DNA of 34,238 nt from an uncultured Gemmatimonadota bacterium. Lineage in GTDB: Bacteria; Gemmatimonadota; CAZMKB01. This document shows, in pieces, positions 1 to 16,886 of the stretch. The first letter of the stretch is position 1; each line of letters starts with the position of its first letter. The notes beneath the pieces are model-generated. The model did no database searches. It was not told the DNA's origin and saw only the letters and a list, made by a program, of their open reading frames with translations. The stretch is taken from NCBI GenBank assembly GCA_964566685.1, contig CAZMKB010000004.1:1-34238 (forward strand), written 5' to 3'. Position numbers and translations under genes: made by a program.

Positions 1-217
1 CAGAGCAAGTTAAATTGCCAAAATCAGGGATAGAACTTTTGAGACGCTGCACTAGATCCTCTCTCGTGTTGTCTCGAAGAGCGCATCCTCCGGAACCCTG
101 ATCGGTTCCCCCCCGCGCACCTCTCCGCAGCGAACCGAAGCATGCGGTCCCGTGCCGATGCCCGAAACTAACTCGGCGCCGCGGTTATTGATCCTCTGTT
201 TTCAACGCAGCGCCTCG

Positions 218-246
218 TTGACAGGCCTTTCCGGAGACGGTAAATT
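218..246 (+). promoter_or_regulatory. sigma70-type promoter candidate for the M6 peptidase gene
   Basis: TTGACA (218-223), 17-nt spacer, TAAATT (241-246), about 85 nt upstream of ATG 331. Motif-only call. Confidence 0.5.
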
Positions 247-330
247 GGAGTAAAGATCGAGGGCCCCTGTTCATGCCCGGGACCGCCGCGGCCCTGTTCC
301 TGAAGGGGACCGCTCCAAAAGGAGGATTCC

Positions 331-3093
331 ATGATACCCGCCCCATCCCGCACCCTGATGTTTTTCGTCTCTGCCGCACTCTTCTTCTCCCTGGCCGGAA
401 CCGCGCTGTCGATAGTACCTCCCCGCCGTTCCGGCGTCACGCTCCCGGTTCCCCGGAGTGCGCTCGAAGCGCAGGGGGTCGGCATGCCGGCACCCGTTCC
501 CGGGAGGTTCCTGGTGACGGACGGCGAAGGAAACCGGACGGTCAGGATCGAGGGGGTGTACCCGGTGCCGGTGCTGCTCGGCGAGTACTCGAACACCACC
601 GGAACTTACAGCAGCGCGGAATTCCAGACCATGCTCTTCGATGGTCCCTTTCCGACGGGTACGATGAAGGAGTACTACGAGGAGAACTCCTACGGCCTCT
701 TCACGCTCGAGGGCACCGTTTTCGGATGGTACGGGATGCCCGGCTCGAGCGGGTACTACGAGGGAGGCGACAACGGCTTCGGAACGGATTTTCCCACCAA
801 CGCCGGCGGGTTCGTGTACGACCTGGCGGCAGCCTCGGATCCCGACGTGGACTACGGCCTGTACGACAACGACGGCCCCGACGGCATGCCGAATTCCGGC
901 GACGACGACGGAGTGGTGGATGCGTTTTTCGCCGTTCACACCGGAAACGGCGGCGAGTGCGGCGGGACGGGCATCTGGTCCCACCGCTGGAGAGTGTCGT
1001 CCGCCGGGGGGCCTCCCGGAGGCTACGAGACCGACGACCCGGCGGCCGGCGGCGGGTTCATCCACGTGAACGACTACATCATCATGCCCGAGCTCGACTG
1101 CAGCGCGAACGAGATGAACGCCATCGGGGTGTTCTGTCACGAGTTCGGTCACTCCCTCGGGCTTCCCGACCTGTACGACGGAGACGGCTCTTCGGAAGGC
1201 ATCGGCGGGTGGGGCCTCATGGGCTCGGGTTCCTGGGGCGGCGACCAGGCCCACCCGGAGCTCCCGGTCCACTTCACTCCCTGGAGCAAGGAGCGGCTCG
1301 GCTGGATCGAGCCGTTCGAGCTCGGGCAGAACACGGATGTGGTGTCTCTGCCGAGGGTCGAGGACTCTCCCACCGTGGTCAGGGTCTGGAAGGACGGCGA
1401 CTACACGGGCACGGAGTACTTTCTCGTCGAGAACAGGCAGAAGGTCGGCTTCGACGCAAGCCTGATCAGGCCCGGAATCCTGATCTGGCACGTCGACAAC
1501 GACCGTCCCCACAACAACGACGAAACGCACAAACTGGTCGACCTCGAGGAAGCCGACGGTACGAACGGCCTCGACAATTCCGGCAACAGGGGTGACGCCG
1601 GGGATCCCTGGCCGGGCAGCACAGGCAACCGGCGCTTCGACTGGGACTCCCGCCCCGACAGCTACTCCTACTACGGATACCGGACCGAGGTCTCCGTGGT
1701 CGACATCGGCGACCCCGACTCGCTCATGACCGTTCGCTTCACCGTCCGTTCAGCGGTCATCGACTCGATCTCCTGGAACACCGACGACCCCGGCGGTGAC
1801 GGCGACGGAGTCTGGGACATCGGGGAGACGCTGGCGGTGGACTTCACGGTCGAGAACGACAGCCAGACTCCGGCCGAGAGCCTCTGGGCCGTTCTCGAGA
1901 GCGACGATCCCATGGTGACCGTCGACACGGACAGCGTCTTCCTGGGAACCCTCGAGGGAAGTTCCTGGATCGGGAACGGGGGCGAACCGTTTCTCGTCAC
2001 CGCGCTGCCCGAGTCGGAGGTCCACAGGACGACGCTCCGCCTGACGCTCTCCGGGAACGAGTTCTTCTCCTGGAGCAGCTCGATGGACATCATGATCGGG
2101 CATCCGTCGGTACTCCTCGTGGACGACTCGGAGGAAGGATCGGGGATCCTCGACTACTATGCCGCCTCCCTCGATTCTCTCTCCGTCCCGTTCATTTCCC
2201 GCACGGTCTCCCTCGAAGGGAGCGCGGCCGACACCCTCGAGCCGTTCGACCTCGTCATCTGGTTCTCCGGGAGGGAAACGGAGGACATACTCGACTCGCT
2301 GGATCTCCTGGCGCTCGAGGGACACCTGGAGCGGGGCGGCCGCCTGCTCCTCTCGGGACAGAACATCGCCGAGGATCTCGCGGCCAGGGAGGATCCTTTC
2401 CTCGGTGAGATACTCGGGGTGGCCGGCTGGGGCGGAACGGCAACGCTCCCGTTCGCCTACGGGATAGACGGCGATCCGGTCACCGGCGAGATCGAGGTGA
2501 TCGTGTCGGCGGGGCCGAAGGGGGCAAACAATCAGACCTCGAAGGACATCCTGGAACCGGTGTTCGAGGATCTGGTCATGGCCTCGTACGACTCGACCGA
2601 TCCGGGACAGGCCGCCGCCACGCGGAACGAGTTCCCGGAATACGGCGCGAAGGTCATCTTCCTCGGTTTCGGCTTCGAAGCGGTGAACCGGCCCTCCGGC
2701 GATCCGCTCCACACGACCCGTCTCGAATTCATGGAAAAGATGCTGGCCTGGCTCGAGACCCCCGTGGGAGTGGAGGACGCCGGAGAGAGCGGCGGACATG
2801 TTCCGCGGATCGTGTCGCTCGGCCAGAACTACCCGAATCCGTTCAATCCCAGCACGACGATCTCGTTCGAAATCCCCGCCGCCGACCGGGAAACCAGGAC
2901 CCGGCTCGTCATCTACAACATCCGGGGAACCCGTGTGCGTTCACTCGTCGACCGGATCCTCTCTCCCGGTCTCCACCGGGTGGTCTGGGACGGGAGGGAT
3001 GATCGCGGGACGGCCGTGTCCTCGGGCATCTACTTCTGCCGTATCGCTCACGGCGAAACCAGCATCACCCGGAAGATGTTGCTTCTCGAGTAA
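331..3093 (+). CDS. Secreted M6-family (immune inhibitor A-like) zinc metallopeptidase with C-terminal T9SS/FlgD-like sorting domain
   Basis: ATG 331 is preceded by AAAGGAGGA (317-325). Hydrophobic N-terminal signal (MFFVSAALFFSLAGTALS). HEFGHSLGLPDLYD zinc-binding HExxH motif. The last ~90 aa (NYPNPFNPSTTISFEIP...GIYFCRI...KMLLLE) look like Por/T9SS type-A C-terminal domains. TAA stop. Confidence 0.85.
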   Translation: MIPAPSRTLMFFVSAALFFSLAGTALSIVPPRRSGVTLPVPRSALEAQGVGMPAPVPGRFLVTDGEGNRTVRIEGVYPVPVLLGEYSNTTGTYSSAEFQTMLFDGPFPTGTMKEYYEENSYGLFTLEGTVFGWYGMPGSSGYYEGGDNGFGTDFPTNAGGFVYDLAAASDPDVDYGLYDNDGPDGMPNSGDDDGVVDAFFAVHTGNGGECGGTGIWSHRWRVSSAGGPPGGYETDDPAAGGGFIHVNDYIIMPELDCSANEMNAIGVFCHEFGHSLGLPDLYDGDGSSEGIGGWGLMGSGSWGGDQAHPELPVHFTPWSKERLGWIEPFELGQNTDVVSLPRVEDSPTVVRVWKDGDYTGTEYFLVENRQKVGFDASLIRPGILIWHVDNDRPHNNDETHKLVDLEEADGTNGLDNSGNRGDAGDPWPGSTGNRRFDWDSRPDSYSYYGYRTEVSVVDIGDPDSLMTVRFTVRSAVIDSISWNTDDPGGDGDGVWDIGETLAVDFTVENDSQTPAESLWAVLESDDPMVTVDTDSVFLGTLEGSSWIGNGGEPFLVTALPESEVHRTTLRLTLSGNEFFSWSSSMDIMIGHPSVLLVDDSEEGSGILDYYAASLDSLSVPFISRTVSLEGSAADTLEPFDLVIWFSGRETEDILDSLDLLALEGHLERGGRLLLSGQNIAEDLAAREDPFLGEILGVAGWGGTATLPFAYGIDGDPVTGEIEVIVSAGPKGANNQTSKDILEPVFEDLVMASYDSTDPGQAAATRNEFPEYGAKVIFLGFGFEAVNRPSGDPLHTTRLEFMEKMLAWLETPVGVEDAGESGGHVPRIVSLGQNYPNPFNPSTTISFEIPAADRETRTRLVIYNIRGTRVRSLVDRILSPGLHRVVWDGRDDRGTAVSSGIYFCRIAHGETSITRKMLLLE

Positions 3094-3180
3094 CCTGCCA
3101 GCTGATGATCGTGCGTCCTGCCTGCGCGGGGAAGTGGCCACGGGAGCCAGTGAAGCGATTCGACATCGGAGGGAAGAGGT

Positions 3181-4287
3181 ATGGAAGAAGGCGGAGAACA
3201 GAAAAAGACACCGCTCTATGACGTGCACCGGGAGCTCGGCGGGAAGATGGTTCCCTTCGCCGGCTACAGTCTTCCGGTCTCCTACAGCGGCATCCTCGAC
3301 GAGCACCGGGCGGTGAGAGAACGGGTGGGGCTCTTCGATGTCTCCCATATGGGAAGGATCGAAGTGCTCGGGGACGGAGCCTCTTCGTACCTCGATTACA
3401 TCACGACGAACAGCGTGCCGGCGCTCGATCCCGGGCAGGCACAGTATTCAGCGATGCTGAACGACGAAGGTGGCATCATCGATGACATCCTGGTCTACCG
3501 CGAGAGCGACCGGTATCTGGTGGTGGTGAACGCCGCCAACCACCGGAAGGACTTCCGCTGGATGGATCGGCACCTGTCCGGGGGCGTCTCTCTCGTGGAC
3601 GTGACCGGGGAAATCGCCCAGATCGCTCTCCAGGGCCCGGCGTCACAGGAGATTCTCGCGAAGCTCACCGATCTCGACCTCGACGGAATCCGCTACTACT
3701 GGTTCACCCGCGGCCGGGTGGCCGGCGCCGGCTGCCTCGTCGCCCGGACCGGTTACACCGGCGAAGACGGCTTCGAGCTCTACGTCCCGGCCCGGCGCGC
3801 ACCGGATATCTGGCGGGAGATCATGGAAGCGGGAAGGGACAGGGAAATATTCCCCTGCGGCCTGGGTTGCCGTGACACGCTCCGGCTCGAGATGCGCTAC
3901 TGCCTGTACGGAAACGACATCGACGAGACGACCACCCCGCTCGAAGCCGGTCTCAGGTGGATCACCAAGCTCGACAAGGGGGAGTTCGTCGGCCGCGAGG
4001 CGCTGGTCCGGCAGCTCGAGTCGGGCATCTGCCGGCGGCTCGCGGGATTCGAGATGACGGGGCGCGGAATCCCCCGCCCCGGATACCCGGTGTACTGCGA
4101 AGGAGAGGAAGTCTCCCGCGTGGCCAGCGGCACGAGCTCGCCGTCGCTCGGAAAAGGCATCGGGACTGCCTACCTCCCCGTGGACTGCGCCTCGGTCGGG
4201 CAGACCATCGAGATCGGAATCAGGGGGAAGCGGCAGCAGGCGACAGTGGTGAAACCGCCCTTCTACACCGAAGGCAGCCACCGCTAG
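3181..4287 (+). CDS. gcvT: Glycine cleavage system T protein (aminomethyltransferase)
   Basis: KTPLYDVHRELGGKMVPFAGYSLPVSY...GLFDVSHMGRIEV...ARTGYTGEDGFELY are classic GcvT signatures. SD GGAGGGAAGAGG lies just upstream of ATG 3181. TAG stop. Confidence 0.95.
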   Translation: MEEGGEQKKTPLYDVHRELGGKMVPFAGYSLPVSYSGILDEHRAVRERVGLFDVSHMGRIEVLGDGASSYLDYITTNSVPALDPGQAQYSAMLNDEGGIIDDILVYRESDRYLVVVNAANHRKDFRWMDRHLSGGVSLVDVTGEIAQIALQGPASQEILAKLTDLDLDGIRYYWFTRGRVAGAGCLVARTGYTGEDGFELYVPARRAPDIWREIMEAGRDREIFPCGLGCRDTLRLEMRYCLYGNDIDETTTPLEAGLRWITKLDKGEFVGREALVRQLESGICRRLAGFEMTGRGIPRPGYPVYCEGEEVSRVASGTSSPSLGKGIGTAYLPVDCASVGQTIEIGIRGKRQQATVVKPPFYTEGSHR

Positions 4288-4306
4288 CCCTCCTGCCTGC
4301 CCCGCC

Positions 4307-4335
4307 TTGACACCTTCCGGCCATCTCATTAGAAT
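4307..4335 (+). promoter_or_regulatory. sigma70-type promoter candidate for the bEBP gene
   Basis: TTGACA (4307-4312), 17-nt spacer, TAGAAT (4330-4335), about 90 nt upstream of ATG 4427. Confidence 0.55.
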
Positions 4336-4426
4336 ATAAGAGGAAGGCTGCCAATATGGCAGGCCGCGGCCTGTCGTACGATGAATAATACGGGCTCAGA
4401 ACATTTGTGGGTGAGGAGGGCAGCAC

Positions 4427-5944
4427 ATGGTGGAAGAGAACGGCCATCTCATCGTCATCAGCCATCACGATCCGGCAGTCGCCCGCCGGATCAGGGATAT
4501 CCTCGGGGAGCGGGGGATTCCCGCCCAGCTCCTGTCCGGAATCGAAGAGCTCGGTCACCACCTGCTCGGGGAGGAGTGCGACCTGGTGATCCTCTCGGGC
4601 GGTCTCCGGGACGAACCAGTCAGGAAGATTCTCAAGAAATTCCGCCGCAGCTCCTTCCGCGGGGCTGTCATCGGGTTCTGGGAGTCAGGATCCATGGAGG
4701 AGGAGGAGCGGCTCGAGCAGCTCGGTGTCGACGAGGTTCTCACGAAGCCCCCCGACCCGAGGGAGGTATTTCTCGTCTCGAAACGGCTCCTCGAGCGGGA
4801 GGACCTCATCCAGCTCACCGGTCTCATCGGAACTTCCCGGGTGATGACCGAGCTCCTCGAAAAGGTCGAGCGATTCGCCCCGGTCAACTCCACGGTCCTG
4901 ATCACCGGAGAGAGCGGGACCGGAAAGGAGCTCGTCGCGAAAGCGCTTCACCGGCTGAGCCCCCGCAGTCACAAACCCTTCATCGCGGTGAACTGCGCCG
5001 CCCTGCCGGAGAGCCTCCTCGAGTCGGAACTCTTCGGGCATGAGAAGGGAGCGTTCACCGGTGCCACCGCCCTCCGGAAGGGGCGGTTCGAGATCGCTCA
5101 CGGCGGGACACTCTTTCTGGATGAGATCGGGGAGATGTCTCTCTCGACGCAGGTCCACCTGCTGAGGGTCCTCGAGGAGCGCGAGCTCATGCGTGTGGGG
5201 GGATCCACACCGATACCCGTCGACGTTCGGGTCGTCGTCGCCACGAACAGGGATATTCGTGAAGAGGTCTCCGCCGGGCGTTTCAGGCGCGACCTGTACT
5301 ACCGGATCAAGGTCCTGATGATCGACGTCCCGCCGCTCCGGGAACGCAGGGAGGACATCCCGCTCCTGGTGAACAAGTTCGTGCGTGAGTTCTGCGAGGA
5401 GAACAGGAGGAGCTTCGCCGGCCTGACCGACGAGGCGCTCGAAGTCCTGGTCAACTATGACTGGCCGGGCAATGTGCGCGAGCTCAGAAATCTGATCGAG
5501 AGCATGCTCGTTCTCTCGCCGGATCACAAGATCAAGCCGTCGGACATTCCCGAGCACATCTTCAAGCGGGGCGATCCCCGGCGGCTCCTGCCCATGCAGG
5601 TCCTCCCCGAGATTCCCGAAGGCAGGAGATTCGAGGCCATTCTCAACGCGCTCCTCGAGATCAAGCACGACGTCGACGAGATCAAGGAAGCCATGCCGGT
5701 GAGGAAGGCCGGCGAGGTCGTTCCGGAATCGGAGGATCGGGAGTTTCCCGGCGGAGAGCCGCGATACCGGGAAGGCGACGGTTACATCAAAATCGTGCCG
5801 GGAACGCCGCTCGAAGAGGTCGAGAAGATCCTCATCGAGGCGACTCTCGACATGGTCGGAGGAAACAGGAGAATGGCATCCGAATTGCTCGGTATCGGAG
5901 AGCGGACTCTCTACCGGAAGATCAAGAACCATCAGCTCACCTGA
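4427..5944 (+). CDS. Sigma54-dependent transcriptional activator (NtrC-family bEBP) with degenerate N-terminal receiver-like domain and C-terminal Fis-type HTH
   Basis: SD GTGAGGAGGG (4411-4420). AAA+ Walker A GESGTGKE, Walker B TLFLDEIGE, sigma54-contact loop GAFTGA, RRDLYYRI arginine-finger region, C-terminal HTH NRRMASELLGIGERTLYRKI. The N-terminal ~120 aa has a CheY-like pattern but lacks the acidic pocket (see findings). Confidence 0.93.
   Translation: MVEENGHLIVISHHDPAVARRIRDILGERGIPAQLLSGIEELGHHLLGEECDLVILSGGLRDEPVRKILKKFRRSSFRGAVIGFWESGSMEEEERLEQLGVDEVLTKPPDPREVFLVSKRLLEREDLIQLTGLIGTSRVMTELLEKVERFAPVNSTVLITGESGTGKELVAKALHRLSPRSHKPFIAVNCAALPESLLESELFGHEKGAFTGATALRKGRFEIAHGGTLFLDEIGEMSLSTQVHLLRVLEERELMRVGGSTPIPVDVRVVVATNRDIREEVSAGRFRRDLYYRIKVLMIDVPPLRERREDIPLLVNKFVREFCEENRRSFAGLTDEALEVLVNYDWPGNVRELRNLIESMLVLSPDHKIKPSDIPEHIFKRGDPRRLLPMQVLPEIPEGRRFEAILNALLEIKHDVDEIKEAMPVRKAGEVVPESEDREFPGGEPRYREGDGYIKIVPGTPLEEVEKILIEATLDMVGGNRRMASELLGIGERTLYRKIKNHQLT
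5874..5889 (+). promoter_or_regulatory. sigma54-type -24/-12 promoter candidate (TGGCAT-N5-TTGCT) upstream of the FG-GAP gene
   Basis: TGGCAT (5874-5879), ccgaa, TTGCT (5885-5889), with GG/GC spacing as in the RpoN consensus TGGCAC-N5-TTGCW. Lies inside the 3' end of the bEBP gene, 64 nt before ATG 5953. Confidence 0.45.
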
Positions 5945-5952
5945 GACGAATC

Positions 5953-7428
5953 ATGAATCACCTCCTCCGCATAGCATTGCCCGTCACGTGGACACTGGTT
6001 CCGCTTTCCGTGCTCACAGCCCAGCTGCCCGGGTTTTCGAGAGCCGATCTGGAGACGAGAGAGGACCCGACCTGGGCGGAGCTCGTCGACCTCGACCACG
6101 ACGACATTCCGGATCTCGTCGTCAGCAACTCGATGAATTTCAGCGAGTACATAACGGTCTTCCTCGCCGACTCGGCGGGTTCGTTCACGCTCTCCGATGA
6201 CTACCTGATCCCCCGGGGTAACGGCGTGCGAAGCTTTTCCACCGGTGACTTCGACGAAGACGGTCATGTCGACGTCCTGGTGCCCTGCTGGCTGTCGGAT
6301 CAGGTGTTCCTGTTCCGGGGCGACGGTGAGGGCGGGCTCGGCGTGCCGGAGGAAATCTGGGCCGGACTCAATCCCGATCCGGTCACCGTCGGCGACTTCA
6401 ACGACGACGGCCACCTCGATTTTGCCGCCTCGAGCTGGATCACGGGATACGTGAATGTCATGCTGGGCACCGGCGACGGGACCTTCCTGGGCCCCGATCC
6501 CTACGACGTGCGGGGAGGGCCGAACTATTCGTGTGTGGATGACTTCAACGAAGACGGAATCGCCGACATCGCAGTCGCCAACTCGACGTTCAATGACGTG
6601 GCGCTGCTCGAGGGCAGGGGAGACGGGACGTTTCTCATCGGGGAAACCTTCGATGTCCTCTACGACGCCTACATGCCCGCTCCCGGCGATTTCAACGAGG
6701 ACGGCCACACCGACATCGCGTGTGCGACCCACCGCTCTCTCTCCATCCTGCACGGGGACGGAAACGGCGGCTTCGAGCGGGTGCAGGATTTCGTGACCGT
6801 CTCCCAGTTCAAGTGGGTGAGGGTAGGTGATTTCAACGAGGACAGGCATGATGACATCGCGCTCTGTATCAGGGAGTATTCGAACGTGGTCATCCTCGAG
6901 GGAAACGGAACGGGGCTGTTCGGCTCGCTCCTGCCGCTTCCGGTCGGCACCAGTCCGCAGTCGCTCGTCATCTCGGACGTTGACCTCGACGGTCACGATG
7001 ACCTGGTCACCGCAGGCGGAGATCCGGGAAGCGTGACCTTTCTCGGAAATGACATGGACGAGAGCCTGACGCTGGAAGTTCCCGACAGAGTAACGGCGGT
7101 GAGGGGAGACACGGGTTTCCTGAACGCCACCCTGGACATCCGGAACCGGAACGACTCGGCGGTCTCCTGTGACCTCTGGCTCACGATTTCGGAAAACGGG
7201 ACGGGAGAGAGGTTCGTCTCGCTCGAACACATCAACTGGCCGGCGAACCCGTTCCCCCTCGCGCTCGATCCGCACGAAACCCTGTCGCTCGGCCTGGCAG
7301 CGGTGACACCGCTCGACTCCGTGTCGGGGAATTACGTTCTCAGGCTGAGGCTGGGGCTCTATCCGGAAACGCTCTACTCCGCGGACTGTTTCGACGTCGT
7401 TCTCCCCACCCATGGCGGGATCGACTGA
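5953..7428 (+). CDS. Secreted FG-GAP/VCBS-repeat protein (predicted 7-bladed beta-propeller) with C-terminal Ig-like region
   Basis: Signal-like N-terminus MNHLLRIALPVTWTLVPLSVLTAQ. Seven Ca-binding-type repeats (DLDHDDIPDLVV, GDFDEDGHVDVLV, GDFNDDGHLDFAA, DDFNEDGIADIAV, GDFNEDGHTDIAC, GDFNEDRHDDIAL, SDVDLDGHDDLVT), mostly at a 147-nt (49-aa) period. Starts 8 nt after the bEBP stop. Confidence 0.85.
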   Translation: MNHLLRIALPVTWTLVPLSVLTAQLPGFSRADLETREDPTWAELVDLDHDDIPDLVVSNSMNFSEYITVFLADSAGSFTLSDDYLIPRGNGVRSFSTGDFDEDGHVDVLVPCWLSDQVFLFRGDGEGGLGVPEEIWAGLNPDPVTVGDFNDDGHLDFAASSWITGYVNVMLGTGDGTFLGPDPYDVRGGPNYSCVDDFNEDGIADIAVANSTFNDVALLEGRGDGTFLIGETFDVLYDAYMPAPGDFNEDGHTDIACATHRSLSILHGDGNGGFERVQDFVTVSQFKWVRVGDFNEDRHDDIALCIREYSNVVILEGNGTGLFGSLLPLPVGTSPQSLVISDVDLDGHDDLVTAGGDPGSVTFLGNDMDESLTLEVPDRVTAVRGDTGFLNATLDIRNRNDSAVSCDLWLTISENGTGERFVSLEHINWPANPFPLALDPHETLSLGLAAVTPLDSVSGNYVLRLRLGLYPETLYSADCFDVVLPTHGGID

Positions 7429-7494
7429 CAGGGGAGGGGTCGGTAGGCGTGAACATGTACATCGATCGCATCAAAGGAGGCTTTTCATGGTAAC

Positions 7495-7524
7495 TTGACA
7501 CCGGGACGCGCCTCGTGGTATTCT
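7495..7524 (+). promoter_or_regulatory. sigma70-type promoter candidate for the 7599 gene
   Basis: TTGACA (7495-7500), 18-nt spacer ending in TGG, TATTCT (7519-7524), about 75 nt upstream of GTG 7599. Confidence 0.45.
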
Positions 7525-7598
7525 CCTCCACGCCCGGATACTCCGAGATAGCCCGGCTGTGAGACTGACATTACCCGTCCCCGAAAGGAGAAACCGAC

Positions 7599-8099
7599 GT
7601 GAAGAGTTCTGAAAGGGAAGCGATCTGCCGGGCTGTCCGTCCGGCGGCGATTGGCCTCCTTACCCTGATTTGCTGGGGATCTGTCGCCCACGCATCGGAT
7701 TCCGGAGTGACGAAGGACCGATGGTTCATATTCTCGGGGAAGAAACCGGACGGTACGTACGTGGAAAAATGTCTTCTCGTCAACGAGGTGCTCAGGGATG
7801 ACTACGGTCCGGGTACGACAAAACGTGATATGCTGATCGAAGCGGAAGACGGGCAGTCATTCAGAAAAATGGGGACGTATCCGCCTTCTCGCTGGGAACG
7901 GAAGAGGAAACCAACCAGAAAGTACGATTGTGCGGGGCTCGTCTTCGATGAACTCTGGGACAAAGACAAGAAACCCGACGAACCCGGAAAGTACGCTTTC
8001 AAGATAGGGGCGGACAGGTTCTACAAGACCATCATCAAGGAATTCGGAACCGAGGTCGGGAAATTTGACTACATCAACAAAAGCGATGTGGTTGTCTAG
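7599..8099 (+). CDS. Orphan secreted protein, N-terminal part of an amber-interrupted gene; weak NlpC/P60-like Cys motif
   Basis: GTG 7599 with SD AAAGGAG (7584-7590). Signal-like AAIGLLTLICWGSVAHA. YDCAGLV motif (Cys codon 7929-7931). Ends at TAG 8097-8099, and the same frame continues open into the next ORF. Confidence 0.6.
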   Translation: MKSSEREAICRAVRPAAIGLLTLICWGSVAHASDSGVTKDRWFIFSGKKPDGTYVEKCLLVNEVLRDDYGPGTTKRDMLIEAEDGQSFRKMGTYPPSRWERKRKPTRKYDCAGLVFDELWDKDKKPDEPGKYAFKIGADRFYKTIIKEFGTEVGKFDYINKSDVVV

Positions 8100-8123
8100 A
8101 TCAAAGACGGGTCCGCAAAACAC

Positions 8124-9806
8124 GTGGCTCCGGTGATGAACGGCACATACTTTCTGTCGAGTGTCGAGATCCTGACGAAGAACGACAAGGAGAGCACGTT
8201 CCACAACTGGGAATCGCTTCACAGCAGCCGTCACAAGGAACTGCTCAGCATAATTGACAGCTACACCCTCAAACCGGGAGTCGAAACCCGCGGTGTGGAC
8301 GAATTCTACATCAACTTCGGCTTCATCGACCAGGCCGCGATCTACCACATCGACGTCGACAAAATCAAGGTCCGTGAGGCGACGGAGGGTGAATGTCAGC
8401 CGGTCAAAACCAGCGGCTGCGGAGATCCCCATGCCGTAACGGATGAATGGAACCGGGCCGCCCGGGAGGTCATCCCTTCGTTCCCCTTCTTCGACGCCTC
8501 CGAAAAGAGCAAACAGGTCGAGGAAAGCGGGTACGGAACTTCGTGGGACTACTCAGCGGTCATGGACGGCGGCGTCATTCCGATCTCCGACTGGGACGAC
8601 CCGAGCGTGTGGAACGCAGAGAAGGGAGGGAAACCTCATATCATCTTTTCCGCGAAGTGGCATCTATCCTATGACTACAACGGTCCGAAGACTCCTGAAA
8701 AGATGGCGGATCTGTACCAGAGGGTAAGGGACAATGCCAAAGCCTGCGGGGATCGGGGGTGGGATATCCGGGAAGGGGCGTTCGGAGAGAAGTCATGCAT
8801 CGGCTCGTACGCCCACAGGGGGACGATCGATCTCAGCATGGCGTCGGATCCCTACGGCGGGTACGGGAAACTGTACAAGTGCCTCCCCTGTGCAGACATC
8901 TATTCGGAGGTCTCGATACAGATTTTTGCACCACCATCACACGGGTCCCGGAACAAGCCGGAAGTGATCAGAGCCCTGAACGAGTCTGCCCGGGAATACG
9001 CACAGCAGATCGGTATGAAACTGATGGCAATCGCTGAGGGTGCACCGGTTGAACCTCCGCCGACGATGTTCGCGGATGGATCTGGTGAGGGCTCATTCTC
9101 CGGCGAAGGGGAGTCAACCGGTCAGGCCCAGGGAGGGAAAGTGCCTGTTCTGGCCGACGCGCAGGGCAGCGATTCCCGCCGGGGGTCGGGAGAAGATCTG
9201 CCCCTGATGGGATACCCGCAGACCGGCGTCCCGGATGTTCCTCCGGAGGACGACGTGGATCAGGTCATCGCCGATGCGATCGCTTCACTCAGGGAACAGG
9301 GTGGGGGAATGGAAGTCGAGGGAGCGGACGTTCCCACCGGGGGGGAGATGGAGGGGAGAGACTGGAAAACGGATGATCTGGCCTCCTATGAATCGGATGA
9401 CGACCTGCTCTTCGAGGGTGAAGAACTCATGGCCCAGGGTAGGTTTCGTGAAGCGGCGGAGGCATACGAGACAGCCATACGCCGGAATCCGGACAATCCG
9501 GAATACCGCGTTCGTTACGGAGACGTTCACATATTGCAGGGAAACTGGCGGGAAGCCGAGGTGGCCTACCGGAATGCAATCGAGATAGATTCTTCCAGGG
9601 CCGAGTACCACGCACTCCTTGGAGAATCCCTGGTTGAGCAGAGCAGGTGGAGGGAAGCCGAAGCGGCATATCGGGAAGCGATCCGCCTCGAGCCCGATCA
9701 CCCCGGGCACCACGGAATGCTCGGCCTGATCCTGATGGAGCAGGGAAGAGAACAGGAGGGTGAAGCTGCTCTTAAGAAAGCGGAAGAACTCGAATCACAG
9801 TGGTAA
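8124..9806 (+). CDS. Orphan protein with acidic low-complexity linker and C-terminal TPR repeats; same frame as 7599..8099
   Basis: Long ORF in the same frame as the upstream ORF (both starts are multiples of 3 apart). No SD before GTG 8124 or ATG 8136. About four TPR-like 34-aa repeats at the C-terminus (AEAYETAIRRNPDNPEY..., AEVAYRNAIEIDSSRAEY..., AEAAYREAIRLEPDHPGH...). D/E/G-rich linker at ~9060-9420. TAA stop. Confidence 0.6.
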   Translation: MAPVMNGTYFLSSVEILTKNDKESTFHNWESLHSSRHKELLSIIDSYTLKPGVETRGVDEFYINFGFIDQAAIYHIDVDKIKVREATEGECQPVKTSGCGDPHAVTDEWNRAAREVIPSFPFFDASEKSKQVEESGYGTSWDYSAVMDGGVIPISDWDDPSVWNAEKGGKPHIIFSAKWHLSYDYNGPKTPEKMADLYQRVRDNAKACGDRGWDIREGAFGEKSCIGSYAHRGTIDLSMASDPYGGYGKLYKCLPCADIYSEVSIQIFAPPSHGSRNKPEVIRALNESAREYAQQIGMKLMAIAEGAPVEPPPTMFADGSGEGSFSGEGESTGQAQGGKVPVLADAQGSDSRRGSGEDLPLMGYPQTGVPDVPPEDDVDQVIADAIASLREQGGGMEVEGADVPTGGEMEGRDWKTDDLASYESDDDLLFEGEELMAQGRFREAAEAYETAIRRNPDNPEYRVRYGDVHILQGNWREAEVAYRNAIEIDSSRAEYHALLGESLVEQSRWREAEAAYREAIRLEPDHPGHHGMLGLILMEQGREQEGEAALKKAEELESQW

Positions 9807-11139: not shown

Positions 11140-11916
11140 TCAGTGGGGATATGCGTGACCCCGCTGGGACGACACTTTCTCCGTTTTCGGCGCCTTCTCG
11201 ACCATGTCGGGGATCGCCACGGCCACGACTTCGTCCATCGTCCCCACCAGGATGATGTTCAGCTTCTTCTTCACTTCCGGAGGGAGGTCTTCAAGGTTTT
11301 TCTCGTTCCTCTTCGGAATGAGGAGCACCGTCGCTCCGGCACGCAGGGCCGCAACGGCCTTCTCCTTCAGCCCTCCAATGGGAAGGACCCGCCCGCGAAG
11401 TGTTATCTCTCCCGTCATCGCCACGTCCCTGCGGACCGGCAGTTTCAGGAGAGCCGATATCAGCGCCGTGGCGATGGCGATACCGGCGGACGGCCCGTCC
11501 TTGGGAGTGGCTCCTTCCGGGATGTGAACGTGGAGATCGTACTTCTTGTGAAAGTCGTCCTTCAGGCCGAAAACCGGAGAACGTGCCCTGATGTAGGAGA
11601 GCGCGGCTTCGGCCGATTCCTTCATGACATCGCCGAGCTTCCCCGTGAGACTCAGGTTGCCCTTGCCGGGCACGACGGAGACTTCGATCGACAGGATCTC
11701 GCCGCCGGCCTCGGTCCACGCCAGGCCGGTTGCCACACCGACCTCGTCGGCCTCACCGAGCTCCGTCTCGAAGTACTTGCCGGTGCCGAGGAGCTTCCTC
11801 ACCTGCTTCGGGGTTATCGCCGTCCTCTTCGACTCTCCCGCGGTGGCGACCTTCCTCGCGATCTTCCGGCAGACGGTGCTGATCTCGCGCTCGAGATTCC
11901 TGACGCCGGCCTCCCG
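11140..11916 (-). pseudogene. lon: Lon protease, C-terminal fragment (end of AAA+ module plus Ser-Lys proteolytic domain), out of frame with the N-terminal fragment
   Basis: This frame reads [23 protein letters not shown]...[17 protein letters not shown]...[19 protein letters not shown] (catalytic Ser motif)...[11 protein letters not shown]. The track ORF 11140..11802 begins at an internal GTG (Val in full-length Lon). Homology continues upstream in the same frame to ~11916. Confidence 0.88.
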
Positions 11917-13541
11917 CCGCTGATGATCGTCCCGATCGCGTTCCTGCTGAAGGACACCTTCTCCCCGCTGAGGCCATGAGCCTCGAGCTGCTTGGGAATG
12001 AGAAACCGCTTCGCGATCTCCACCTTTTCGCCTTCCAGATATCCCGGAAGCCGGATGACCTCCATCCGGTCGAGGAGGGCGGGGTGGATCGTATAGAGGA
12101 CGTTCGCCGTGGTGATGAAGAGCACCCTCGAGAGGTCGTAGTCGACCTCGAGGTAGTGGTCGCTGAACGCGTTGTTCTGTTCCGGGTCGAGCGCCTCGAG
12201 CAGCGCGGCGGAGGGATCTCCCCTGAAATCGACGGTCATCTTGTCGACCTCGTCGAGGAGCATGACGGGATTCACCGTCCCCGCACGTTTCATCGCCTGG
12301 ATCAGGCGGCCGGGAAGAGCGCCGATGTAGGTGCGCCGGTGCCCGCGAATCTCAGCCTCGTCCCTGATGCCCCCGAGCGAGATCCTGACGAATTTTCTCG
12401 AGAGAGCCCGGGCGATGGAGCGGCCGAGCGACGTCTTTCCGACTCCGGGAGGCCCCACGAGGCAGAGAATGGGACCCTTCATCCTGCCGACGAGCTTGAG
12501 GACCGAGATGTATTCGATGATCCGCTCCTTCGCCTTCTCGAGGCCGTAGTGGTCCTCGTCGAGAATCCTCGCGACCTCCTTCACCGACAGGTTGTCCTTC
12601 GTCCGCTTCTTCCAGGGGATCCCGAGCAGCCAGTCCAGGTAGTTCCTCGTGACGGTCGCTTCGGGCGAGAGCGGGGCCATTTTCGACAACTTTCTGATCT
12701 CCCTGTCGACCTTCTCCCGCACTTCCTTCGGCAGTCCCGCCGAGTCGGCTTTCTCCTGCAGCTCGATGATCTCGTCACCCTGATCCTCGGCGTCGCCGAG
12801 CTCCTTGTAGATGGCCTTCAGCTGCTCCTGCAGATAGAATTCCTTCTGGTTCTTGAGGACCTGTGTCTTGACCTCACCCTCGATCTTGCGCTCGAGCTTG
12901 AGGATTTCGATTTCGGATACCAGGATGCGGTTGATCTGCTCGAAGCCTTTGTAGAGCGTCTGCTTCTCAAGCAGCTCGACCTTGTCCGGGAGCTTGAGGA
13001 TGAGGTGACTCGAGATCAGGTACAGCAGGCGGCTGTTGTCGACGACGTTCTGCAGGGTGGTGAGCAACTCGTCGGGGAGCCGCTTGTTGAGCTTGACATA
13101 CTCTTCGAACAACCCCACGGCGCGCCGGGCGACCGCCTCGATTTTCTTGCCCTTCTCTTCGACCACCGGATAGAGCTCTATTTCAGCTTCCAGGAACTCC
13201 TCCTCCTGCGGGTATGAAATCGCTTTCGCACGCTCGATGCCCTCGATGAGAACCTTGATCGTGCCGTTCGGGAGCTTCACCATCTGGAGGATGCGCGAGA
13301 CGGTGCCGACGGAGTAGAGATCGGACGGCTCGGGCTCCGCTATGTCGCTCTCGAGCTGGGGGACCAGGAAGAGGAACTTGTCACCGAGCATGGCGTGCTC
13401 GAGCGCCGAAATGGAGGCCTCCCTGCCGACGAGGAGCGGGACCACCATGTTCGGGTAGATGACGACGTCGCGCAGCGGGATGGTGGGAAGAACTTCCTGT
13501 ATCTCCAGGTGTTCGCCGTCTTTTACGGTCGTGAGTGTCAT
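11814..13541 (-). pseudogene. lon: Lon protease, N-terminal substrate-binding domain plus AAA+ module, terminating prematurely after a frame disruption near 11911-11920
   Basis: IPLRDVVIYPNMVVPLLVGR (Lon N domain), Walker A GPPGVGKTSLGRSIA, Walker B MLLDEVDK. After ...[10 protein letters not shown] the translation degrades to Arg/Ser/Pro-rich sequence ([19 protein letters not shown]...) until TAA at 11814. ATG 13541 abuts the clpX stop (TAAATG). Confidence 0.9.
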
Positions 13542-16800: not shown

Positions 16801-16886
16801 TGGTGCGAGAGGGGGGACTCGAACCCCCACGGGATATTCCCACAGGATCCTAGGTCCAGCGCGTCTGCCGGTTCCGCCACTCTCGC
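16801..16886 (-). tRNA. tRNA-Leu (anticodon UAG), type II with long variable arm, encoded CCA
   Basis: Minus strand: GCGAGAG-UG-GCG...CGC-G-CUGGA-CCUAGGA-UCCUG-UGGGAAUAUCCCG-U-GGGGG-UUCGAGU-CCCCC-CUCUCGC-A-CCA. Aligns position-for-position with E. coli tRNA-Leu. The anticodon loop CCUAGGA gives UAG at 34-36. Position 33 is C and pair 28:42 is U-U (see findings). Confidence 0.88.

Follow-up and report, generated by a model that had tools for sequence, protein, structure and literature searches.

The subject of this analysis is the plus-strand reading frame 7599..9806 of contig CAZMKB010000004.1, from an uncultured Gemmatimonadota bacterium; the whole stretch analysed, 34,238 nucleotides long, is called the window below. 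A single in-frame TAG at 8097-8099 divides this frame into two open reading frames (ORFs), 7599..8099 and 8124..9806. We consider it probable that the two ORFs are one gene, cut by a genuine and recent nonsense mutation. The intact product would have run, in order, from a signal peptide through a remote NlpC/P60-type papain-like Cys-His hydrolase domain, a Cys-rich middle domain and an acidic linker to a set of tetratricopeptide repeats (TPRs). A single-base change would have turned a conserved aromatic codon, just before the His strand, into TAG. Translation would then stop after residue 166, giving a secreted fragment with the Cys and without the His, and the rest of the frame, which lacks its own signal peptide, promoter and effective ribosome binding site, would be silent or nearly so. 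The outcome would be a young pseudogene or truncated allele, presumably fixed in the population.

The reading frame and its homologues across the stop

The two ORFs share one frame (frame 0, which holds GTG 7599 as well as GTG 8124); the TAG is all that separates them. Re-translation of 7599..9806 gave 736 codons with one internal stop (...KSDVVV*IKDGSAKHVAPVMNG...). The Cys is encoded by TGT 7929-7931 and the His by CAC 8121-8123, and the stop and both positions agree with the original prediction. The upstream ORF starts with GTG and encodes a product of 166 amino acids (aa). Translation could restart at GTG 8124 at the earliest, and the His codon lies in the 24 nt that separate this codon from the TAG, so neither separate product could hold the Cys-His pair. 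The 568 codons downstream of the TAG contain no second defect, which suggests that the lesion is recent.

The evidence that the two ORFs belong together comes from homologues. With the read-through translation (X at the stop) as query, phmmer was run exhaustively against 1.84 billion representatives. Five proteins (P0024, P0025, P0026, P0028 and P0030), all uninterrupted and all distant (~30% identity), aligned to query residues 36-181, spanning the stop at query position 135. About 50 residues after the D-C-A-G motif, which is invariant in all seven sequences of the family alignment (A1), these five homologues have [GNH]-D-[IV]-[VM]-[VIA] and then, in the column of the TAG, an aromatic residue (Tyr in two, Phe in two and Trp in one). 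Past the aromatic column they continue with x(6-11)-H-[VI]-[AT], then T-K-D-G-x-E and a strand that resembles IWRID, and the window's second ORF retains these downstream family motifs (Table 1). The His is conserved in 6/6 sequences that have the region. A signal-peptide-like N-terminus stands directly before the domain in P0025, P0026, P0028 and P0030; P0024, as retrieved, has none. For P0025 the complete ORF is found at locus L003, in a metagenome-assembled genome (MAG) of Negativicutes, where it is 515 aa long, uninterrupted and equipped with a signal peptide.

Because five uninterrupted homologues align through the stop, the junction lies, on the evidence of these alignments, within a single domain, which spans from aa 33 of the first ORF to about aa 265 of the read-through product. 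The premature stop thus falls inside a domain that is continuous in homologues, and it takes the place of a conserved aromatic residue. The ancestral codon would most simply have been TAC or TAT (Tyr) or TGG (Trp), each of which is one substitution from TAG.

The family is extremely rare: it accounts for ~8 clusters in a set of 1.8 billion representatives. When 5.8 billion proteins were searched with a word index, the only matches were the proteins of the window itself and a nearer relative, P0002, to which the family profile added P0030. Scanning genome and metagenome contigs with the family profile found one Negativicutes locus only (L003, which is the same contig as L004), and the window protein alone gave no matches among these contigs. 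An exact-product look-up had no record for P0001, the 556-aa downstream protein of the source record, or for either fragment of lon, a disrupted neighbouring gene described below.

Signals for a separate start downstream of the TAG are weak. The restart candidates GTG 8124, GTG 8133 and ATG 8136 score -4.1, -2.6 and -2.6 kcal/mol against the anti-Shine-Dalgarno (anti-SD) sequence, where many neighbouring genes score -8 to -13 kcal/mol and several reach -10 to -13; tig and the gene for an FG-GAP repeat protein are as weak as the restarts. The earlier observation that GTG 8124 and ATG 8136 have no SD therefore stands as a statement of weakness beside strong neighbours, tempered by a few real genes that are equally weak. 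No promoter-like site was found downstream of TAG 8097-8099.

A remote branch of the NlpC/P60 superfamily

The domain that spans the junction lies outside curated models. A Pfam scan of both ORFs and the read-through product found only the TPRs, with no hydrolase model and nothing in the first ORF or over the junction; an NCBIfam scan of the same sequences found nothing for the domain either. The gathering threshold of PF00877 (NlpC/P60) was not reached, and the window's read-through product had no match to it even at E ≤ 10. Below threshold, the seven family members matched CHAP (4/7, best E = 0.0069), NLPC_P60 (3/7, best E = 0.022) and DUF1287 (2/7), all three of which we take to belong to the papain-like clan.

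Profile comparisons were more specific. When the family profile was searched against 177,635 PDB sequences, the top matches were Spr/MepS, with E = 0.034 and 0.093 for the whole domain and E = 0.0031 and 0.0054 for a trimmed core. Aligned directly by hhalign, the family and E. coli MepS gave probabilities of 92.1% and 92.5%, compared with a best value of 2.0% among 29 decoy proteins from the window and E. coli. The hhalign columns place DCAG on DCSG, which holds the catalytic C94 (numbering of the MepS precursor), GDVVV[YFW] on GDLVLF, and xHVA on RHVG, which holds the catalytic H145.

Two features of an NlpC/P60 domain are recognisable here. One is a D-C-S/A-G Cys at the N-terminus of a helix: DCAG occurs in 7/7 family members, its Cys aligns with C94, and in an AlphaFold2 model from the seven-sequence alignment (predicted local distance difference test, pLDDT, 76; predicted template modelling score, pTM, 0.77) helix 79-88 starts at this Cys. 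The other is a His on the strand that follows a GD-hydrophobic-aromatic strand, ~50-60 residues past the Cys, which in the window exists in the read-through product only. A model of the trimmed core with X at the stop was worse than that of the full domain (pLDDT 63). Foldseek searches against PDB and BFVD returned nothing at E ≤ 0.001 in three runs, and the highest-probability match in each run was a CHAP endolysin domain, at probabilities of 0.35-0.66 that are not significant. In NlpC/P60 enzymes a third, polar catalytic residue (His, Asn, Gln or Glu) is expected ~10-12 residues after the His, and the profile alignments stop short of it. The position at +12 is not conserved; the conserved TKD(G) at +17 to +19 is no more than a candidate.

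The profile evidence supports a remote, uncurated branch of the NlpC/P60 superfamily, which by the Pfam criterion is not a member of PF00877. The intact protein would be a peptidoglycan or amide hydrolase. With the NlpC/P60 family (MEROPS C40, PF00877; E. coli MepS/Spr) it shares the D-C-[SA]-G-[FLY]-V motif at the Cys, the G-D-hydrophobic strand that ends in an aromatic residue ~55 residues on, the xHV[GA] motif with the His, and secretion, which in the window family is predicted. Unlike that family, it carries additional elements at both ends (a beta-hairpin region at the N-terminus, strands at the C-terminus), scores below the Pfam and NCBIfam thresholds, is extremely rare and, in the window, is interrupted by a stop. 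The proposal in the original prediction that an NlpC/P60-like Cys and His flank the TAG is thus borne out by the homologues that span the junction and by the 92% match to MepS, whereas the Pfam model stayed below threshold and the fold matches were not significant.

We also considered membership of CHAP (PF05257), amidases and peptidases of the same papain-like clan, and rejected it. The family resembles CHAP in its HVA-type His motif and differs in its Cys motif, which is of the NlpC/P60 type; hhalign against the CHAP domain of E. coli Gss gave 1.5%, and the Pfam matches to CHAP were all below threshold.

Origin of the stop codon

With a single premature stop in a conserved domain, a frame that is otherwise intact, no restart signals and a disrupted gene nearby, the locus resembles bacterial nonsense pseudogenes. 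The disrupted neighbour is lon, 4 kb away, and two of the ~25 genes in the contig are affected in all; we count the lon lesion in favour of a nonsense mutation. Among the four explanations that the original prediction had left standing, a recent pseudogene created by a real nonsense mutation fits best.

The same lon frameshift could also point to imperfect consensus quality, and the contig is metagenome-assembled. The TAG might then be a wrong base call, or a consensus choice that hides a coexisting intact Tyr or Trp allele. We think this improbable. A contig from the Logan assembly of run SRR7048218 (SRR7048218_262432, 1178 nt) is identical to window 7322..8499, with zero mismatches, the TAG present and no break at it, and the 166-aa product is also on record in that assembly. 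Since an independent assembler arrived at the same sequence, an artefact of assembly or polishing, another of the four earlier explanations, is unlikely. The TAG also lies outside any homopolymer or repeat. A literature search for SRR7048218 found nothing.

A different alternative is raised by the nearest relatives. P0002, encoded at 215..1090 of a 1.2-kb ENA contig (L001), is 61% identical to the first ORF over aa 1-162 (~70% in the best segment) and then continues, in the same ORF, with unrelated sequence; the His half was sought in every frame of L001 and none was found. P0006 has a signal peptide and a Cys half (34% identity, ending ...KPFGWEI, with DCAG as RDCAGAV) that is joined straight to the middle domain and a TPR-like region, so that the ~120-residue His half is absent. 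The break points of both proteins lie no more than ~15 residues from the window's TAG. A 9-residue insertion after DCAG is common to the window, P0002 and P0006 and is absent from the distant full-length homologues. Within this clade of three sequences, the His half thus appears to have been removed, replaced or cut off three times, at break points no more than ~15 residues apart. Between the window and L001, over aa 33-162, the proportion of nonsynonymous differences (pN) is 0.21 against a saturated synonymous value (pS) of 0.745, which suggests strong purifying selection on the Cys half.

These relatives set the locus apart from ordinary nonsense pseudogenes, as they show natural loss of the part after the break point. 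The window may hold a functional truncation, or a loss of domain in progress, in which the Cys half works alone, for instance in binding or in a structural role; the 166-aa secreted protein would be comparable to P0002, and the rest of the frame would be a relic. The homology of P0002 that ends at aa 162, the fusion in P0006 that skips the His half, the shared insertion, the invariant DCAG (in alignment A1 and also in P0006) and the low pN of the Cys half all favour this alternative. We nevertheless regard it as unlikely. The clade consists of three sequences only, and L001, at 1.2 kb, could be chimeric. In P0006 the Cys half is still fused to the middle domain and TPRs, which the TAG in the window disconnects. 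The His-half motifs of the window are all intact, which argues that this region was under selection until very recently, and an isolated Cys half has no known function. The repeated break may mark a domain boundary that tolerates lesions once catalysis is dispensable, or the Cys half may hold a role of its own; both suggestions come from three sequences.

A bolder version, to which we give rather little weight, is that the Cys half has turned into an autonomous, non-catalytic secreted module. The His half would have been lost three times at one boundary: deleted in P0006, replaced in P0002 and cut off here by the TAG, which would be a snapshot of adaptive domain fission, with low-level UAG read-through perhaps still supplying some full-length enzyme.

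Programmed recoding of the UAG, by read-through, suppression or pyrrolysine insertion, would allow the whole hydrolase-TPR protein to be made in small, regulated amounts. The rest of the frame is intact and the catalytic dyad is possible only through read-through, and both facts would suit such a mechanism. It is very unlikely all the same. The gene gcvT (3181..4287) stops at TAG six residues past a complete GCV_T_C domain; because this is a natural C-terminus, as noted originally, this genome uses TAG as a normal stop. In homologues the column of the stop holds aromatic residues and is not a pyrrolysine-like position, and no relative has a conserved TAG. The RNA 3' of the TAG folds no better than shuffled sequence (z = 0.22), with no unusual or stable structure. 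Neither a suppressor tRNA, a tRNA-Pyl nor pyl genes were found in the window, so that, judged within it, UAG shows neither a non-stop meaning nor the machinery or signals of recoding, and the earlier suggestion of programmed read-through gained no positive support. The window contains one tRNA only, a normal tRNA-Leu (anticodon UAG; 16801..16886, minus strand, just upstream of tig), which is not a suppressor.

Two truly separate genes that share a frame by coincidence, as the two proteins in the source NCBI record (P0003, 166 aa, and P0001, 556 aa) would have it, can practically be dismissed, given one domain that spans the junction in five uninterrupted homologues, a downstream ORF with no good SD, promoter or signal peptide, and relatives with the middle domain and TPRs that have signal peptides of their own.

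Some of the observations weigh against a recent nonsense mutation in a single gene, which we continue to favour. The Logan contig and the MAG may come from the same reads, and a minority intact allele may coexist with the TAG. The search for uninterrupted orthologues that the original prediction had proposed yielded the five remote homologues and, in every collection searched, no close one, so the ancestral codon is read from homologues of ~30% identity only. Finally, since P0002 and P0006 both lack the His half, truncation at this point is perhaps tolerated or even functional, and not simple gene death.

Gene layout, neighbouring genes and wider meaning

The features of the gene are collected in Table 1. 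The promoter-like site is well placed and statistically not significant, with 1 such site found against 0.8 expected by chance. The predicted signal peptide, read by eye from the sequence, has a basic n-region, a hydrophobic core and an AHA cleavage motif. The C-terminal TPRs, which the original prediction had recognised, exceed the Pfam gathering scores at residues 440-567 of the downstream part (TPR_16, E = 1.7e-22, 79.9 bits, cut-off 32.7; TPR_2, E = 4.1e-21, 73.7 bits, cut-off 27). Third-position GC of 7599..9806 is 0.65-0.69, compared with ~0.77-0.87 in most neighbouring genes, which hints at weaker codon adaptation or a foreign origin.

Table 1. Features of the interrupted gene and its upstream signals, in window coordinates.
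Feature	Coordinates	Strand	Evidence or remark
Promoter-like site: TTGACA, 18-nt spacer, TG-extended TATTCT	7495..7524	+	~75 nt before the start codon
Shine-Dalgarno AAAGGAG and GTG start codon (7599-7601)	7584..7601	+	-8.7 kcal/mol against the anti-SD
Predicted Sec signal peptide, aa 1-32, ...GSVAHA|SD	7599..7694	+	By eye from the sequence
Cys half of the NlpC/P60-like domain, aa 33-166, with invariant D-C-A-G	7695..8096	+	Family alignment, hhalign, PDB sequence search
In-frame TAG; column Tyr/Tyr/Phe/Phe/Trp in five uninterrupted homologues (= Phe of MepS GDLVLF)	8097..8099	+	
His half of the NlpC/P60-like domain (KHVAPV, TKNDKES, AIYHIDV)	8100..8393	+	Translated only via read-through of the TAG
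Cys-rich middle domain (VIPSFPFF ... SC.GS ... DPY ... PCA ... HG.R.KP.VI)	8376..9074	+	phmmer matches P0004-P0023, alignment A5
Acidic low-complexity linker, Gly/Pro-rich	9075..9416	+	Translation; linkers of P0005 and P0007 similar
Four C-terminal TPRs and TAA stop (9804-9806)	9417..9806	+	Pfam

The Cys-rich middle domain (residues ~260-492, ~200 aa) has no Pfam match and no sequence relative in PDB. By phmmer it is common to ~20 other protein clusters (P0004-P0023), often preceded by a signal peptide or by a variable N-terminal head. Ten of these relatives were scanned with Pfam, and in five (P0004, P0005, P0006, P0007 and P0013) TPRs come after the domain. In P0005 and P0007 a signal peptide stands directly before the middle domain, and an acidic linker like that of the window is present. 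P0004 (672 aa) shares 49% identity with the middle domain of the window and likewise ends in TPRs, and its different N-terminus carries an HExxH-like LLHELRHID; its Pfam scan found TPRs only. Judging from these architectures, the middle domain and TPRs may form a scaffold that carries interchangeable hydrolase heads.

The lon gene lies on the minus strand in a canonical tig-clpP-clpX-lon-engB cluster. It is split into ORFs 11814..13541 and 11140..11802, which encode fragments of 575 aa (substrate-binding and AAA domains) and 220 aa (Lon_C), by a frameshift at ~11905-11925. Compared with solved Lon structures, the YT of the conserved YTREAGVR motif is missing. A deletion of 7 nt would account for this, as would one of 1 nt in a protein whose native form is two residues shorter. 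The plus strand upstream of the interrupted gene (331..7428) carries the gene of an M6 peptidase (immune inhibitor A-like, with a FlgD Ig-like domain at its C-terminus), followed by gcvT, the gene of a sigma-54 activator and that of an FG-GAP repeat protein of 491 aa.

Annotation should join the two ORFs into a single entry, marked as a disrupted gene, and not list two hypothetical proteins. The family defines a very rare secreted branch of the NlpC/P60 superfamily outside curated models, with the signature DCAG ... [YFW]-x(6-11)-HVA ... TKDGxE, and the analysis also defines an uncharacterised Cys-rich domain that is repeatedly found ahead of TPRs. As a nonsense lesion, the TAG is of an ordinary kind. 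Its one broader implication, should the His half really have been lost repeatedly, would be the fission of a domain at a conserved boundary.

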